From positions 17,188 through 81,187 of the forward strand of contig MHBQ01000059.1 of the NCBI GenBank assembly GCA_001803315.1: a stretch of DNA of 64,000 bases, read 5' to 3'. Position numbers and translations under genes: made by a program. The DNA comes from Lentisphaerae bacterium RIFOXYC12_FULL_60_16 (GTDB lineage Bacteria; Verrucomicrobiota; Kiritimatiellia; UBA8416; YA12-FULL-60-10). The notes below the pieces were generated by a model. That model made no database searches. It saw only the letters and a program-made list of their open reading frames with translations, and was not told the DNA's origin. Shown piece after piece: positions 4,747 to 28,188 of the stretch; positions within the stretch are counted from its first letter, which is position 1; each line of letters begins with the position of its first letter.

Positions 4747-5204
4747 ACGCCAACACCCCCACCGGAATGGATGCCGTGCTCGACCGCGCGATCGCCAACG
4801 AGGAATCCGCCGCCGCCTTCTACCGGCAGGCAGCCTCCCGCGTGACCGATGCGCTCACACGCGAGGCGCTCGAAGGCTTGATGCGCGATGAGGTCGAGCA
4901 CAAGCGTCTGATCGAGGAATTCCGAAACGGCGCGCGCCCCCTCCCCGAAGAACGCACATCGGGCGGCTCGCTCCTGGAGTACTTCGGGGCGCCGGATTTC
5001 ACACCGGATCTGTCGCCCGCCGAAGCCTTCCTCCTGGCCGCCAGGAAGGAACAGCTCGCCGTGGAGTTCTACGAGCACTGGGCGGACCTCTATCCCGCCG
5101 GGCCGGAGCGGGAATTGCTCCTGCGCCTTGCGGAGGTCGAACGCCGCCACAAGGTTAAGGTGGAATACCTCTATGTCAACACCGCGTTCCCAGAGGCATG
5201 GTGA
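4743..5204 (+). CDS. Rubrerythrin/ferritin-like diiron four-helix-bundle protein
   Basis: Two ExxH motifs are present (EVEH, EVERRH) with a helical repeat pattern. A GTG start at 4743 has GGAGAA upstream; ATG 4767 is the alternative. Confidence 0.5.
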   Translation: MNANTPTGMDAVLDRAIANEESAAAFYRQAASRVTDALTREALEGLMRDEVEHKRLIEEFRNGARPLPEERTSGGSLLEYFGAPDFTPDLSPAEAFLLAARKEQLAVEFYEHWADLYPAGPERELLLRLAEVERRHKVKVEYLYVNTAFPEAW

Positions 5205-6285
5205 AGTGAACGCCCCTTGCCCAGCCGCCACGGTTGCTTTCGCGGAGACGGATGTTGTCCAATACCAATGTAATGGCGGCCGGTGCGAGAGTCTGTACCG
5301 GCGCGACGCCGTGGTCCCGGAATCGCCCCTCCGCATCGAGGCGGACAACGCCACCTATACGCTCATGCGCACGCCGGGGGCGGACCGCGAACTGGTCGTC
5401 GGATTCCTCTTCACCGAGGGGATCATCGAGCGGCCGGACGATATCCTGCTGCTGCGCGAGTGTCCGGAATCCCCTGACGTCATCACCGTGAAAACCTCCG
5501 ATGCCAGGGAAAAGCCCCGCCGGACGCTGACGATCACCTCGTCGTGCGGACTGTGCGGCAGGGACGACATCGAAACGATGGTGGAGGCCCTGGGCCGCGT
5601 CGAGAGTCCCTTTCAAGTCTCCCTGGCGACCGTGTACCGGATGCCCGCGACGGTCCGGGCGATGCAACCCTTGTTCGACGCGACCGGCGGCGCGCATGCC
5701 GCGGCCCTGTTCGACGCGGACGGCAAGGTCCCCCAGGTCATGGAAGACGTGGGCCGGCACAATGCGCTGGACAAGCTGATCGGACAGGCGCTCTTGCGGG
5801 GAATCTCCCTCAACGACCGCGGGGCGTTTCTATCCGGGCGAACCAGCCTGGAACTGATCGCAAAAGCAGCCAGGGCCCGCATTCCCGTCGTCGCAGCGGT
5901 GGGCGCTCCCACCACCGCCGCAGTCGACGCGGCCGAGCGGCTCGGCATCACCCTGCTCGGGTTCTTGCGGGACGAGCGGGTTTCCGTGTATACGCACGGA
6001 TGGCGGATCATGGCGTCGAACCTGCGGGCTCGCGCCGAGGGGCCGCTCCGCACAGCGGTCGAAATCGCGAACGGAGGAACCGACATGTGCCAAATGCGCA
6101 TCGTGCTGAAGGAAAACGACCATGAGGAGGTTGTTCTGGAAAACGCGGCCTGCCTCAAGGTGACCGACGCGGGCATCCTGGTCAACGCTTTGTTCGAGCA
6201 ACCGAAACTCGTCCCGGGCGTGACCCTTGCCGGCATCGATTTTCTAAGCAGCACGGTTACCTTGACCAAAGCAGGAACCCCCTGA
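5173..6285 (+). CDS. fdhD: Formate dehydrogenase accessory sulfurtransferase FdhD with an in-frame C-terminal CooT-like nickel-chaperone domain (6085-6285)
   Basis: The FdhD core covers residues ~1-300 (GRHNALDKLIG, C-terminal VYTHGW). A ~20-aa linker follows. The tail MCQMRIVLKENDHEEVVLENAA...DFLSSTVTL matches the CooT family (MC at the N-terminus, ~66 aa). An internal RBS GGAGGAA lies 5 nt before ATG 6085. No stop codon separates the two parts. Confidence 0.75.
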   Translation: MSTPRSQRHGEVNAPCPAATVAFAETDVVQYQCNGGRCESLYRRDAVVPESPLRIEADNATYTLMRTPGADRELVVGFLFTEGIIERPDDILLLRECPESPDVITVKTSDAREKPRRTLTITSSCGLCGRDDIETMVEALGRVESPFQVSLATVYRMPATVRAMQPLFDATGGAHAAALFDADGKVPQVMEDVGRHNALDKLIGQALLRGISLNDRGAFLSGRTSLELIAKAARARIPVVAAVGAPTTAAVDAAERLGITLLGFLRDERVSVYTHGWRIMASNLRARAEGPLRTAVEIANGGTDMCQMRIVLKENDHEEVVLENAACLKVTDAGILVNALFEQPKLVPGVTLAGIDFLSSTVTLTKAGTP

Positions 6286-7519: not shown

Positions 7520-9920
<2,401 letters not shown>

Positions 9921-9959: not shown

Positions 9960-11639
<1,680 letters not shown>

Positions 11640-11653
11640 GCTATCGCTCCTTA

Positions 11654-12211
11654 TTACGTCATCAAGCGCGTCCCCAGCCGCTCGAGCATGCCCAGGGCGG
11701 AACCGTCATACAGACGGCCGTCGACCTGGATCCGCACGCCGCACAGCAATCGTGGATTCACATGCGCAACCAATTGAATGGGCGTTGCCAGGGCACGGCA
11801 CAGGGCATCCCGGATGCGGTGGCACTGCTCGTCCGACATCGCGTGGGCGGATTCCGCTTCGGCAACGAGCATGTTGAATTGCCGGGCGGTCCGCTCGCGG
11901 AGGTGTACCGCGATCCGGTAAACCAGGCCGATACGCCGGCGCTGCGTGAGATATTCCAGGAAGCGGACGGTCAATGCGCCGAGCGCGAGCCGTCCGGCCA
12001 GCAGTTGCAGGAAGCCCCGCTTCTCGTCCGCCGTCAGGTGCGGGGCCCGCAGAATCTCCATGAGTTCCGGAATGCAGAGCCCGCGGCGTCCGGGAACGAG
12101 ATACTCCGCCGCGAGCAGCAGTTCCGCGCTGGCCGCCTCCAGGTTGCCGCGGCCGGACGCCACCGTGCAAAATGCCCGCGCATACCGCGCGGCGACGATT
12201 TCCTTAATCAT
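11654..12211 (-). CDS. atpH: F1 ATP synthase delta (OSCP) subunit
   Basis: 185 aa OSCP-like protein. It overlaps the atpF stop by 8 nt. Confidence 0.8.
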
Positions 12212-14442: not shown

Positions 14443-15186
14443 TCATGACCCGAAAAGCAACAGCAGGGCGATGACGAAGGCATACACCGTGGTCGACTCG
14501 GCGACCGCCGCCCCCACAAAAAAGGTGTTGCGGAGCAAGCCGTCGCCATGTCCCGGGGTGTCCGCCAGCGCGCGGCAGAACTTGGCCCCCACGAGCCCGA
14601 TGCCCACGGCGGGGCCAATGGCGCCGATCCCCATGCAGATGCCGACCGCCAGCAGGCGCCCCACCATGCTGACCGTTTCGATTCCCGTGACGCCGCCGAA
14701 CGAACCGAACACCATCATCAGCCCGATCACCAGGGCCAGGATGTTGGGCGTCTGGCTCCAGGCCTGCCCCACCAGCATGTAGAGCATGATCTTGCCTGAT
14801 TGCCGCGGGTTGCGGCCAACCGCTTCCACCGCGTCACACCCGACCAGCCCGCAGCCAATGCCGGAACCGAGTGACCCGAACCCCAGGCAGAGCCCGGAGG
14901 AAAGGAAGGCGGCGGCCTGCGCCCAGGAATCGGCCGCCGCGCCTTCCGGACTGGCCATCTTGATGACCAGGATCAGCGCCACGACCAGGGCAAAAATACT
15001 GGGGGTCGAGGCGCCCGCCTGACCGACCAGCATGAGCCGGAATAGCGCCGGGCTGAAGGAAGGCTGGCGTGCCCAGCTCCGCAGCGCGCCCGTCACCACG
15101 TACCCGATCCCGGCCCCATTGCTCAGAGATCCGAGCCCCATGCAGATTGCCGCTCCCAGCAACGCGGCCATGATGGCAATATCCAT
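14443..15186 (-). CDS. atpE: Triplicated (three-hairpin, 6-TM) Fo c subunit with a single conserved ion-binding glutamate
   Basis: The 247-aa protein contains three c-subunit hairpin repeats of ~80 aa each. The helix-2 motifs are GQAGASTPSIF (no carboxylate), GQAWSQTPNIL (Q, no carboxylate) and GAAVAESTTVY (E-S-T..Y retained). Confidence 0.8.
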   Translation of the reverse strand: MDIAIMAALLGAAICMGLGSLSNGAGIGYVVTGALRSWARQPSFSPALFRLMLVGQAGASTPSIFALVVALILVIKMASPEGAAADSWAQAAAFLSSGLCLGFGSLGSGIGCGLVGCDAVEAVGRNPRQSGKIMLYMLVGQAWSQTPNILALVIGLMMVFGSFGGVTGIETVSMVGRLLAVGICMGIGAIGPAVGIGLVGAKFCRALADTPGHGDGLLRNTFFVGAAVAESTTVYAFVIALLLLFGS

Positions 15187-15188
15187 GT

Positions 15189-16181
15189 TTACTCCTGTCG
15201 ATCCGATGGAGGTTTCACGCCGGCCGTTGCGGGTTTGTCGCGGGTGTCATCGTCCGGCATTTCGGCATCCGCCACGCCCAGCGAAATGTAGGTCAACGCC
15301 AACATCGTAAAGACGAAGGCCTGAATCGTCCCGGCGAATACGCCGAAAAAGCCCATCAGCCCCACCGGCAGCACGAGATGGTGGAGCAGGCCGCTGACGA
15401 CGACCAGAATCACCACGCCTCCGAATATGTTGCCGAACAGACGAAACGAGATCGACACGACCTCGGCGATCTTACCGACCACGTTCAAGGGAAACATGAT
15501 GATGCCCATGGCGCCGCCCGGTTCGAAATAACCCTTCAAGTAACCCCGCAGGCCGTGCTTTCGGATCGTGGCGCCATGGCCGATCAGGACGACGAACAGC
15601 AGGGCAAGGGCGAGGGGAACATTGTAGTCGCCGGTCGGCTCGTGAAAGGCCGGCAATCGGAACCCCGCGTCGTAGACCCCGTTGTGACGCGCGAAAAGCC
15701 CCTGGCCGTCGCTCGCTTCCACGAACTCGCCCGGATCGTACCGGCCGTTGCCGTTATAGTCGTTGAAGCGCTCGCCGCCGATATGCATCTCCGGAACCGG
15801 TAGCAGGCCGATCATGTTGGAGACCCACACGAAAAGAAAGAGGCTGCCGATCCACGGCAGGTAGCGCCGCCCGCTGGCGGCCCCGATGCTCCGTGTGACG
15901 AGGTTGTCGAAGACTTCGAACACCTGTTCGAACAGGACCTGGGCCTTGCCCGGCACCTCGCGCAGACGTCGCGTGCAGAGCCACGCCAGCGCGCAGATGA
16001 GGACGGCCACCACGAACGTCATCATGACGGTGGCGTGGTTGAACTCCAGCAGCAGGCCGAATCCGTCGATCTGCACGGGTAGTTCCCGCGCGATGTCTTC
16101 GGACGCGTGCGCGCCCGGCGCCAGCGCCAGGCATGCCGCCGCAAGAAGCACTCCCTTGACGTTGAGCGGGCGGCGGATCAT
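15189..16181 (-). CDS. atpB: Fo ATP synthase a subunit with signal-like N-terminus and ~50-aa loop insertion
   Basis: The C-terminal helices are conserved (…FRLFGNIFGG…LALTYISL). The ATG at 16181 follows GGATGGAAG. The longer ORF reaching 16490 is a GC-driven extension. Confidence 0.85.
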   Translation of the reverse strand: MIRRPLNVKGVLLAAACLALAPGAHASEDIARELPVQIDGFGLLLEFNHATVMMTFVVAVLICALAWLCTRRLREVPGKAQVLFEQVFEVFDNLVTRSIGAASGRRYLPWIGSLFLFVWVSNMIGLLPVPEMHIGGERFNDYNGNGRYDPGEFVEASDGQGLFARHNGVYDAGFRLPAFHEPTGDYNVPLALALLFVVLIGHGATIRKHGLRGYLKGYFEPGGAMGIIMFPLNVVGKIAEVVSISFRLFGNIFGGVVILVVVSGLLHHLVLPVGLMGFFGVFAGTIQAFVFTMLALTYISLGVADAEMPDDDTRDKPATAGVKPPSDRQE

Positions 16182-25854: not shown

Positions 25855-28188
25855 CTACGTCACTTCCACGGCGTTGAACTTGCATGCGTCCAGGCACGCG
25901 CCGCACTTGATGCAACCCGACGGGTCGATCACGTGCCGTTTCTTCCGCTCGCCGGAAATCACGTGCACGGGGCATTTCCGGGCGCAGGCGGCGCAACCGG
26001 TGCATGCCTCGGGCAGTATCCGGAAGGTGATCAGCGCCTTGCAAACCTTGGCCGGGCACCGGTGTTCCTCCACGTGCGCGCGATACTCCTCGGAAAAATG
26101 CCGGAGGGTGCTTAAGACCGGGTTGGGAGCCGAGCCGCCGAGGGCGCACAGCGAGCCGTCCACCGTGGTTTGGGCCAGTTCCCGCAACCGATCGATGGCG
26201 CCCGGCCCGGCGCGCCCCGCGCAGATATCGTTGAGGATGTCGAGCATGCGGCGGATGCCCTCGCGGCAGGGCACACACTTCCCGCAGGATTCCTCCTGCA
26301 GGAACGCCAGGAAATAACGGGCCACGTCCACCATGCAGGAGGTCTCGTCCATCACGATCAGCCCCCCCGACCCCATCATTGAGCCCGCCTGCGCGAGTTC
26401 GTCGAAGCCGATGGGCAGATCGAGCAGGGACTCCGGCAGACAGCCGCCGGACGGCCCGCCCGTCTGCACGGCCTTGAATGCCCTGCCGTCCGGTATGCCG
26501 CCGCCGATCGCGAAGATCAGTTCGCGCAACGGCATGCCCATCGGCACTTCCACCAGACCCGTGTTCACCACCTTGCCGACCAGCGAGAAAATCTTCGTCC
26601 CCTTCGAGGTGGCGGAACCGATGGACGCATACCAGTCGGCCCCGCGGGCGACGATCAAGGGGACGTTGGCCCACGTTTCGACGTTGTTCAGCGTGGTGGG
26701 CCGGTTCCACAGGCCGTTTTCGACGGTGTGGATGTATTTCGCGCGCGGCTCGCCGGGTTTTCCCTCCAGGGACGCCATCAGCGCGGTGGACTCGCCGCAC
26801 ACGAACGCCCCGCCGCCCCGCACCACCCGGATGTCGAAATCGAAACCCGAGCCGAGGATGTCACGGCCCAGGAATCCACGCTCCCGGGCCTGCTCCACGG
26901 CCACCTTGATATGTTTGACCGCCAGGGGATACTCGTCGCGGACATACACATAGCCCTCGCTGGCGCCGATGGCAAACGCCCCGATCGCCATGCCTTCGAT
27001 CACCCGGTGCGGATTGCCTTCCAGCAGGGCACGGTCCATGAATGCGCCCGGGTCGCCCTCGTCGGCATTGCAGACGACGTACTTGGGATGACCATGCGCC
27101 CGGCGGCAGGTGGCCCACTTGCGGCCGGTGGGGAACCCGCCGCCCCCGCGACCGCGCAGGCCCGATTGTTCAATCATCCCGATGATCTGGTCGGGCGGCA
27201 ACCTGAAAGCCTTGGCCAGCGCCTGGTACCCGCCGCATCGTTCCACGTAGTGGGCCAGGTTCGTGGGCGAAATGAAACCGTTGTCGCCCAGCAGGACCCG
27301 TTGCTGCTTCGCATAGAACGGGATATCCATCTCCTTGACGATCGCCTGGTTAGAGGCTGCGTCCCGGTACAGGAATGGCTCGACGATCCTTCCGCCGACG
27401 ACCGTTTCGCGCACGATGGCCGGAACAGCATCGACGGTGACTTTCTGGTAGAATATGTTCTCCGGGCGCACCATGACGAGGGGGCCGCGCTCGCAAAATC
27501 CGGGGCAACCGCACTGGACAAAATCAACCTTCGAACGAATGTTCAACCGGTCCAGTTCGTTCAGCACCGCCGTGGCCACGGCCTCGCAGCCGTATGCCTG
27601 GCAGCCCGTACCGCCACAAACCGCGATTCCGACTTCGGTCGTCATCAACCGCGTCACGTCGAGGGGCATATCCTCCGCCGCCGCTTTCGTGCCCGGCCCG
27701 TCAACCGGAACCGGCTCGCGGTCCACGTTATCCAGCAGGATTTTCACGGCGGCCGGCGATGTCTGGTGATAGCGGCCATCGACGACCACCACGGGACCCA
27801 GCGCGCAGCACCCAAGACAGTTCACGGTTTCGAGCGTGAAACGCCCGTCCGCGGTGGTCCCGCCCGGCTCCACATCCAGCAACCGGACGAGTTCGCCGAG
27901 AACCCGGGGCGCACCACGCACGTGACAGGCTGTGCCGGCACAGACTTTGACGATATGCCGGCCCCGCGGCTTGAGGCTGAACGCGGTGTAAAACGTGGCG
28001 ACGTGGTAAACCTCCGCGAGCGGCACATCGAGCCGCTCCGATGCCATCCGCAGCGAATCCCCGGGAAGATAACCGAGTTCCGCGTTCACGTCCTGGAGCA
28101 CACCGATCAGCGAGGAGCGCGCGGGCTCGTGCCGGCTCAACGCCTTGTCCAGGGCGGCTTCGATCTGGATGGTGGTGGGAAGACTCAT
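25855..28188 (-). CDS. NuoE-NuoF fusion flavoprotein (thioredoxin-like 2Fe-2S, then FMN/NAD(H) 51-kDa domain, then 2x[4Fe-4S] ferredoxin tail)
   Basis: The N-terminus has the NuoE 2Fe-2S motifs (CAGTACHVRG, CLGCCALGP). The NuoF core follows (GRGGGGFPTGRKW, ESCGKCVPCREG). The C-terminus has CTGCAACARKCP and CIKCGACLDAC. 777 aa. Confidence 0.85.
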   Translation of the reverse strand: MSLPTTIQIEAALDKALSRHEPARSSLIGVLQDVNAELGYLPGDSLRMASERLDVPLAEVYHVATFYTAFSLKPRGRHIVKVCAGTACHVRGAPRVLGELVRLLDVEPGGTTADGRFTLETVNCLGCCALGPVVVVDGRYHQTSPAAVKILLDNVDREPVPVDGPGTKAAAEDMPLDVTRLMTTEVGIAVCGGTGCQAYGCEAVATAVLNELDRLNIRSKVDFVQCGCPGFCERGPLVMVRPENIFYQKVTVDAVPAIVRETVVGGRIVEPFLYRDAASNQAIVKEMDIPFYAKQQRVLLGDNGFISPTNLAHYVERCGGYQALAKAFRLPPDQIIGMIEQSGLRGRGGGGFPTGRKWATCRRAHGHPKYVVCNADEGDPGAFMDRALLEGNPHRVIEGMAIGAFAIGASEGYVYVRDEYPLAVKHIKVAVEQARERGFLGRDILGSGFDFDIRVVRGGGAFVCGESTALMASLEGKPGEPRAKYIHTVENGLWNRPTTLNNVETWANVPLIVARGADWYASIGSATSKGTKIFSLVGKVVNTGLVEVPMGMPLRELIFAIGGGIPDGRAFKAVQTGGPSGGCLPESLLDLPIGFDELAQAGSMMGSGGLIVMDETSCMVDVARYFLAFLQEESCGKCVPCREGIRRMLDILNDICAGRAGPGAIDRLRELAQTTVDGSLCALGGSAPNPVLSTLRHFSEEYRAHVEEHRCPAKVCKALITFRILPEACTGCAACARKCPVHVISGERKKRHVIDPSGCIKCGACLDACKFNAVEVT

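Follow-up and report, generated by a model that had tools for sequence, protein, structure and literature searches.

The 64,000-nucleotide stretch of Lentisphaerae bacterium RIFOXYC12_FULL_60_16 analysed here (contig MHBQ01000059.1; hereafter the window) carries a complete F1Fo ATP synthase operon in which a 247-amino-acid (aa) protein made of three tandem c-subunit hairpins is encoded between subunits a and b, the place of a subunit c. In this protein, nicknamed c3x, the ion-binding carboxylate of helix 2 is replaced in two consecutive hairpins and retained in the third. We consider it rather likely that c3x is a selected rotor subunit of a Na+-type F1Fo enzyme, in which it would co-assemble with several copies of the 90-aa single-hairpin c encoded next to it into one heteromeric ring and thereby lower the number of ions per ATP. 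The analysis shows of what hairpins the protein consists, which residues they carry, how it folds in the model, in what gene order it is encoded, and that it is conserved and under selection; the proposal was built from these observations.

Architecture and residues of the fused c subunit

The open reading frame (ORF) of c3x is unbroken from the ATG (15184-15186) to the TGA (14443-14445). Three separate stretches of the protein were matched by the Pfam model ATP-synt_C (PF00137; 128.5 bits in total, E 1.1e-37), and the NCBIfam models of the F0F1 subunit C likewise gave three matches (TIGR01260, 107 bits versus a cutoff of 44). The AlphaFold2 model, built with 25 homologues, consisted of six long helices forming three hairpins, with a predicted local distance difference test score (pLDDT) of 93 and a predicted template modelling score (pTM) of 0.88. 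All three methods thus agree with an earlier sequence-only reading of the window, which had proposed three tandem c hairpins with six transmembrane helices. Pairwise identity between the hairpins is no more than 30-40%, which points to an ancient fusion. Linker 1 is expected on the periplasmic side by analogy with the standard topology of F-type c subunits.

To compare the hairpins, we defined the carboxylate position as the equivalent of Glu65 by alignment to the c subunit of Ilyobacter tartaricus, with the c subunit of E. coli and the 90-aa c also aligned. It is occupied by Ser60 in hairpin 1 (codon 15007-15009; Thr-Pro follows), by Gln145 in hairpin 2 (14752-14754; Thr146-Pro147 follow) and by Glu230 in hairpin 3 (14497-14499), where Ser231, Thr232 and Tyr235 are retained as well. 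Positions 32/65/66 read I/S/T, C/Q/T and I/E/S in hairpins 1, 2 and 3, the helix-1 ligand position of hairpin 3 being Ile196 (14599-14601). A helix-2 carboxylate, which a subunit c has in each hairpin, is therefore found in hairpin 3 only. The motifs named in the sequence-only reading (GQAGASTPSIF, GQAWSQTPNIL and AESTTVY) are all present, and its assignment of S/T and Q to hairpins 1 and 2 and of the only glutamate to hairpin 3 was confirmed by the alignment. Its statement that a single ion-binding carboxylate is retained holds for Glu230 but has to be qualified: with Ile in place of the helix-1 Gln/Glu the site is incomplete and poor in ligands, and in close homologues the carboxylate is absent or located on hairpin 1.

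We also considered whether a carboxylate elsewhere in the helices could substitute for the lost ones. All remaining acidic residues of c3x (D2, E81, D86, D118, E121, E170, D209 and D215) were checked against the secondary structure of the AlphaFold2 model. They occupy the termini, the linkers, or sites at or beside the cytoplasmic loops, and none of the three hairpins therefore contains an alternative mid-membrane carboxylate. The helix breaks of the model fall exactly at Ser60 and Gln145, both of which precede Thr-Pro, and Q56, W143, Q145 and T146 are invariant among the 25 homologues.

Hairpin 3 differs from the others in its cytoplasmic loop (residues 205-219), which reads A-D-T-P-G-H-G-D-G where hairpins 1 and 2 and the single c have R-Q/N-P. 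Within the clade D209 is near-invariant and P211 invariant. The cytoplasmic loop of c subunits is where gamma and epsilon contact the ring, and the loop of hairpin 3 could be a unique docking point for them. Helix 1 of the same hairpin (GIGLVGAKF) resembles that of H+-type c subunits, e.g. GIGILGGKF of E. coli.

The identical 247-aa protein was called on nine contigs from at least four sources (two ENA assemblies, Logan and NCBI); the NCBI entry of the same organism, OGV65848.1, is annotated 'hypothetical protein'. Its orthologues are 244-259 aa long and 46-92% identical, with the architecture unchanged. Ratios of nonsynonymous to synonymous substitution rates (dN/dS; Nei-Gojobori method, five orthologues) were 0.02-0.27 across the hairpins of c3x, indicating purifying selection on all three. 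The values were 0.02-0.23 for hairpin 1 and 0.11-0.27 for hairpin 2; the two carboxylate-free hairpins are constrained at least as much as hairpin 3.

The adjacent single-hairpin c

The 90-aa c contains the residues E39, V70, E72, S73, T74 and Y77, corresponding to the full two-carboxylate Na+ motif defined in Fusobacterium nucleatum (E32/V63/E65/S66/T67/Y70; PMC3692424), and is 57% identical to the Na+ c subunit of I. tartaricus. On these residues it is predicted to be a Na+-type subunit. The sequence-only reading had described the adjoining gene as an ordinary c; it is a single-hairpin c indeed, but one with a rare two-carboxylate motif.

A wider family of fused F-type c subunits

A search of 5.8 billion proteins returned 187 matches at E <= 1e-10, with lengths clustering around 245, 324 and 403 aa, and an exhaustive search of 50%-identity representatives returned 239 clusters at the same threshold. 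Scanning GTDB genomes, we found 39 loci with a fused c. A hidden Markov model (HMM) of the hairpin detected three or four units in the proteins of these 39 loci and up to five in metagenomic proteins. Far from being a one-off, c3x belongs to a broad family of three-, four- and five-hairpin forms, carried by the Planctomycetes-Verrucomicrobia-Chlamydiae group (PVC)/Planctomycetota, by Desulfobacterales (including cultured Desulfatibacillum) and by metagenome-assembled genomes (MAGs) labelled Methylomirabilis and Nitrospinaceae. The closest relatives of c3x are labelled Planctomycetota or Victivallales and the source of the window Lentisphaerae; the taxonomic labels within PVC are thus inconsistent.

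The fused gene is nearly always accompanied by a single-hairpin c with the residues E/V/E/S/T/Y, present in 38 of the 39 loci: directly downstream in 37 and about 1.1 kilobases (kb) upstream in locus L037. In the 39th locus (L023) only 195 nucleotides (nt) of contig follow the fused gene. The full two-carboxylate residue set occurs in every one of the 38 paired single c genes, which are 67-92% identical across phyla.

The carboxylate pattern of the fused subunits, read from the first hairpin to the last, was found to vary. The pattern of the window (S,Q,E) characterizes its PVC/Planctomycetota clade (19 clusters at 90% identity), relatives of which show E,Q,E, E,Q,Q or S,Q,G. A second three-hairpin group, including a Methylomirabilis-labelled MAG, has E,(S/Q),Q. 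The four-hairpin c of Desulfobacterales, found among others in Desulfatibacillum alkenivorans DSM 16219 and D. aliphaticivorans, has E,Q,Q,E (62 clusters), and the five-hairpin forms have E,Q,Q,Q,(E/Q). Some close homologues of c3x have no helix-2 carboxylate at all, yet are otherwise well conserved: S,Q,G occurs in L002 (5982-6741)/P0004, and the third position is Gln in P0008. Further carboxylate-free fused forms have the patterns G,Q,Q,Q and S,Q,Q,Q (four hairpins) and Q,Q,Q. With the carboxylate absent or on hairpin 1 in close homologues, the conserved property is the depletion of sites and not any particular site.

In profile comparison, the E,Q,Q three-hairpin relatives and the window type proved to be positional orthologues, so either hairpin 1 or hairpin 3 can bear the carboxylate. 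By the same method, the five-hairpin form (P0020, P0035 and P0036; 402-405 aa) is the four-hairpin form with hairpin 2 internally duplicated. Hairpins 1 and 2 of the window protein scored slightly best against the 'QTP' class of hairpin 2, and for hairpin 3 it was hairpin 4 or single c that came slightly ahead. The signal for a position-by-position orthology of the window type with the four-hairpin type of Desulfobacterales was weak, and we do not claim a common fused ancestor.

The PVC-type loci and the second three-hairpin group have full F1Fo operons. At the four-hairpin loci of Desulfobacterales (L010-L039) a search of the flanks revealed no F1 genes; in D. alkenivorans DSM 16219 (L012, 3945-7823) Pfam matches gave the order AtpZ-AtpI-a-c4-c-b'-b, followed by unrelated genes. 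Such a locus may supply an alternative Fo to an F1 whose genes lie elsewhere. An ectopic Fo set was noted in Desulfococcus oleovorans by Koumandou & Kossida (PMC4154653).

Comparison with known rotors

The closest solved relative of c3x, by sequence as well as by fold, is subunit c1 of Acetobacterium woodii (4BEM_J). It was the best PDB match (phmmer E 1.9e-16) and ranked first in a fold search (root-mean-square deviation 1.8 Å over 161 columns, 34% identity), with V-type c/K subunits next. No solved chain in the PDB covers all three hairpins of c3x (query-normalised TM-score <= 0.60). The A. woodii ring comprises nine single c and one two-hairpin c1, that is ten sites in eleven hairpins, and the enzyme synthesises ATP (PMC9171764, PMC3604715) at an ion/ATP ratio of n = 3.3 (PMC5662883). 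Its atpE1 (c1) precedes atpE2, and the genes of Clostridium aceticum are arranged alike (PMC7911925).

Like c1 of these two species, c3x has fused hairpins and is encoded in an F-type atp operon, after a and before single c gene(s) (PMC7911925, PMC9171764). A parallel with A. woodii had been drawn in the sequence-only reading, and the likeness extends to a Gln for the helix-2 Glu in one hairpin and, in both hosts, to a Na+-type single c and a Wood-Ljungdahl pathway. There are also differences. The A. woodii c1 has two hairpins, one of them carboxylate-free, whereas c3x has three, of which two consecutive ones are carboxylate-free (Ser, Gln); c3x has its Glu in the last hairpin and Ile instead of Gln as helix-1 ligand; and the partner c has the motif Q...ET in A. 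woodii and a two-carboxylate E...EST here. If a hybrid-rotor subunit of the c1 type is defined by fused hairpins, at least one lost carboxylate, a neighbouring single c gene and an F-type operon, c3x is one; if it is defined by two hairpins with the Q...ET / Q...QT pattern, c3x is not.

Identity to the hairpins of A. woodii c1 is 44-53% for single c and 29-46% for the fused-hairpin classes (about 75 columns, too few to settle descent). Because the c1 hairpins are nearer to single c than to any fused-hairpin class, c3x and c1 are probably, as judged from these sequences, independent fusions of convergent resemblance. Orthology with A. woodii c1 was considered and found unsupported, its hairpins being not specifically related to any fused-hairpin class.

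Previously known cases of hairpin triplication are all archaeal A-type proteolipids (PMC2359735, PMC9171764). The triplicated K subunit of Methanocaldococcus jannaschii and the 13-hairpin protein of M. kandleri resemble c3x in their multiplied hairpins, and some such proteins also in having lost ion-binding residues (PMC2359735, PMC9171764). Their genes, however, are found in A/V-type operons, and their rings are homomeric (in M. kandleri the rotor is a monomer), whereas c3x is part of a canonical F-type operon. An assignment of c3x itself to the A/V-type proteolipids was rejected: V-type K models reached 16-45 bits versus cutoffs of 61-211, F0F1 c models reached up to 133 bits, and the operon is F-type. 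As to the carboxylates of the M. jannaschii protein, two of three are reportedly kept (Ruppert et al. 1999).

We likewise rejected an N-ATPase, which is defined by the lack of delta, the presence of AtpQ/AtpR and matches to the alt_F1F0 c and a models (PMC2881411, PMC4154653). Here delta/OSCP is present, TIGR03322 scored 99.5 with c3x and 70.3 with the single c versus a cutoff of 130.85, and TIGR03306 scored 102.7 versus 302.

Two further systems are informative. In the c11 ring of F. nucleatum (PDB 3ZK1) the residue set is identical to that of the 90-aa partner c (PMC3692424); this ring is homomeric and its host has no fused c gene, so that the comparison concerns the partner c only. The engineered c2, c5 and c10 fusions of Bacillus PS3 (Mitome et al. 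2004; PMC8809890) demonstrate that linked hairpins form a functional F-type ring. Unlike c3x, in which two non-carboxylate hairpins are under purifying selection, they are artificial, and one E56Q in ten hairpins abolishes their ATP synthesis.

Proposed function and its alternatives

In the proposed heteromeric ring, c3x would occupy three hairpin positions beside several copies of the single c. It would supply at most one carboxylate (Glu230) together with two consecutive carboxylate-free positions (Ser60, Gln145), leaving the ring with 2-3 fewer ion sites than hairpins. As an illustration and not a measurement, a ring of 11 hairpins, the geometry of I. tartaricus, F. nucleatum and A. woodii, would with eight c and one c3x have nine sites and require 3.0 instead of 3.67 ions/ATP. 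The enzyme would then gain more ATP from each ion and need a higher threshold ion-motive force; running in reverse, it could use each ATP to build a steeper Na+ gradient. That the two proteins co-assemble, in what proportion they do so, that the ring is specific for Na+ and that the ion/ATP ratio changes are all inferred from comparative evidence. The strongest comparative argument comes from the carboxylate-free variants, for which a complete single c is invariably present: they persist and could not work as homomeric rings, which points to a partner c.

Several points weigh against this proposal. The evidence for co-assembly and for the altered ratio is comparative, and A. woodii probably offers an analogue, not an orthologue. 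Since a single E56Q in the fused PS3 c10 ring abolishes ATP synthesis (PMC8809890, citing Mitome 2004), two adjacent carboxylate-free hairpins look mechanically costly. How two neighbouring Ser/Gln hairpins get past the arginine of subunit a is a real difficulty that needs explaining; that the conserved Thr-Pro kink at these positions forms part of the answer is speculation. Moreover, a lower ion/ATP ratio raises the ion-motive force per ATP, and this in a low-energy Wood-Ljungdahl host, a paradox that A. woodii shares. Finally, the Ile at the Q/E32 position of hairpin 3 may prevent Na+ binding there. The Q32I mutant of Propionigenium modestum reportedly loses Na+ coupling (Kaim et al. 1997), and Glu230 may for this reason not form a normal Na+ site.

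Within the clade the carboxylate differs in its place and is in some members missing, so that ion binding by the fused subunit is dispensable. One rival reading is therefore that c3x is not a working rotor element: it could be a nucleator, ruler or chaperone-like scaffold that sets the ring size, a unique dock for gamma/epsilon, or a regulatory brake, and ion stoichiometry would not be the selected function. The distinctive, conserved cytoplasmic loop of hairpin 3 (D209, P211) would suit such a role. We nevertheless regard it as unlikely. A scaffold that stays in the ring would still be a site-poor ring member, which largely overlaps with the heteromeric rotor proposed above; one that leaves the ring has no precedent, and in the predicted fold the c hairpins form a regular arc.

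The single c could instead form a separate conventional ring, with c3x alone building an alternative homomeric rotor (e.g. 4 x 3 = 12 hairpins with four sites), a V-type-like machine of low ratio working mainly as an ATP-driven Na+ pump. V-type and archaeal rings made only of multi-hairpin subunits do exist (PMC2359735, PMC9171764), and V-type c/K subunits come directly after A. woodii c1 in the fold search. An epsilon devoid of the C-terminal domain, which restrains ATP hydrolysis in many bacteria, would also fit a pump. However, carboxylate-free close homologues (L002/P0004, P0008 and the G/S,Q,Q,Q forms) are normally conserved, pairing with a single c is nearly invariable, and carboxylates three hairpins apart in a ring are unprecedented. 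In addition, A. woodii c1 alone reportedly formed no rings (Brandt et al. 2016). Taken together, we find a homomeric rotor quite improbable.

That c3x is a product of three c genes merged by an assembly or frameshift error, or a pseudogenised tandem duplication, is a priori possible in any MAG and would fit the NCBI label 'hypothetical protein', but the exact sequence on nine contigs, the architecture kept in orthologues and the low dN/dS of every hairpin make it hardly credible, and the frameshifted three-gene array that the sequence-only reading had raised as an objection is rejected as far as sequence data allow.

Novelty and significance

The ion/ATP ratio sets the ATP yield from a membrane gradient and normally depends, as a fixed quantity, on how many identical c subunits the ring has. 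It is already known that hairpin multiplication together with site loss alters this ratio and that F-type hybrid rotors exist. To our knowledge, the only described F-type exceptions (A. woodii and C. aceticum) have a two-hairpin c1 with one dead site. For an F-type c with three or more hairpins we found no description in the searchable literature, in line with the sequence-only reading, which knew of no three-hairpin, one-site F-type c; a prior mention is possible. What appears to be new is the F-type c with three hairpins, its relatives with four or five, and the two consecutive dead positions. The variable and sometimes absent carboxylates, the obligatory pairing with a two-carboxylate single c, and the wide phylogenetic spread, which includes cultured Desulfatibacillum, also appear new.

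Heteromeric F-type rotors may form a broad undescribed class in PVC, Desulfobacterales and other anaerobe-rich lineages, in which three-, four- and five-hairpin c subunits, depleted of ion sites and in some cases devoid of them, are built into a two-carboxylate Na+ ring and the rotors pass at least two consecutive carboxylate-free hairpins; we hold this to be a serious possibility that stops somewhat short of being probable. If true, it would imply a mechanism of tolerance or torque-sharing at the a/c interface that has not yet been recognised, given that engineered PS3 rings cannot pass even one such hairpin. It would also constitute a natural, evolvable 'gearbox', with the number of sites tuned through hairpin number and carboxylate pattern. 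As c3x and its four- and five-hairpin relatives indicate, bacteria have repeatedly explored a route towards V-type-like rotors. The family bears on how the carboxylate-free positions of a rotor get past the arginine of subunit a and on why energy-limited anaerobes would lower, not raise, their ion/ATP ratio. As D. aliphaticivorans and D. alkenivorans, which carry the four-hairpin form, are in culture, experiments are possible.

The atp operon and its neighbourhood

The genes of the operon (Table 1) follow in the order weak AtpZ-like ORF, AtpI-position ORF, a, c3x, single c, b', b, delta, alpha, gamma, beta and epsilon.

Table 1. Features of the c3x gene and of the atp operon in the window
Feature	Position	Strand	Basis or remark
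c3x gene, including stop	14443..15186	(-)	ORF; Pfam ATP-synt_C x3; AlphaFold2
Hairpin 1 of c3x, residues 1-76	14959..15186	(-)	alignment, AlphaFold2
Linker 1, residues 77-87	14926..14958	(-)	non-helical in AlphaFold2 model
Hairpin 2 of c3x, residues 88-159	14710..14925	(-)	alignment, AlphaFold2
Linker 2, residues 160-169	14680..14709	(-)	AlphaFold2 model
Hairpin 3 of c3x, residues 170-247	14446..14679	(-)	alignment
Single-hairpin c, 90 aa	14116..14388	(-)	Pfam; 54 nt downstream of c3x
Subunit a, 330 aa from the gene callers' ATG	15189..16181	(-)	Pfam ATP-synt_A, 167.7 bits
Membrane protein in AtpI position, 140 aa	16178..16600	(-)	conserved in L001-L006
Protein with weak AtpZ/ATPase_gene1 match, 102 aa	16597..16905	(-)	18.1 bits (below cutoff)
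Subunit b', 334 aa	13088..14092	(-)	Pfam/NCBIfam
Subunit b, 295 aa	12204..13091	(-)	Pfam/NCBIfam
Subunit delta (OSCP)	11654..12211	(-)	Pfam
Subunit alpha	9960..11639	(-)	
Subunit gamma	9015..9920	(-)	
Subunit beta	7520..8938	(-)	
Subunit epsilon, 94 aa	7202..7486	(-)	beta-sandwich domain only

Subunit a keeps the stator Arg in ISFRLFGN. Its N-terminus is signal-peptide-like, about 50 aa (GGERFNDYNGNGRYDPGEF...HEPTGD) are inserted after transmembrane helix 2, and the size of the subunit is conserved in the PVC-type relatives L002-L006. The protein in the AtpI position had no Pfam match. Both b' and b are about twice the usual length: an additional N-terminal hydrophobic segment and an additional unannotated domain of about 130 aa in b' and about 90 aa in b precede the canonical membrane anchor, which suggests a periplasmic superstructure on the stator. 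Epsilon is without the C-terminal helical domain.

The operon directly continues an array of Wood-Ljungdahl genes. Its first ORF, with the weak AtpZ match, starts 5 nt after acsE, and it is co-directional with acsE, acsD, cooC, RACo, acsC, acetyl-CoA synthase (ACS), a NuoF-like protein, carbon monoxide dehydrogenase (CODH), methylenetetrahydrofolate reductase (MTHFR) and formyltetrahydrofolate synthetase (FTHFS). Array and operon together span 7202-35309 (-) of the window, with formate dehydrogenase at the opposite side of the atp operon. The Wood-Ljungdahl pathway that the sequence-only reading had ascribed to the host thus adjoins the ATP synthase genes, in an unusually close linkage. The arrangement resembles a single super-operon that would couple carbon fixation to ATP synthesis, and the direct continuation of the array by the operon suggests that carbon fixation and energy conservation are co-expressed.

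The same acsD-acsE-atp junction was found in L001. No acsE/acsD was found within 6 kb upstream of L002-L006; acsE/acsD lie directly upstream only in the window and L001, and the linkage was rejected as a trait of the family.

Between ACS and CODH, the 777-aa NuoF-like protein (25855-28188, (-)) combines two thioredoxin-like 2Fe-2S stretches, a Nuo51 flavin mononucleotide (FMN) domain and 4Fe-4S domains, and may be an electron-bifurcating module. A fusion protein of FdhD/NarQ and CooT is encoded at 5128-6285 (+), adjoining formate dehydrogenase.

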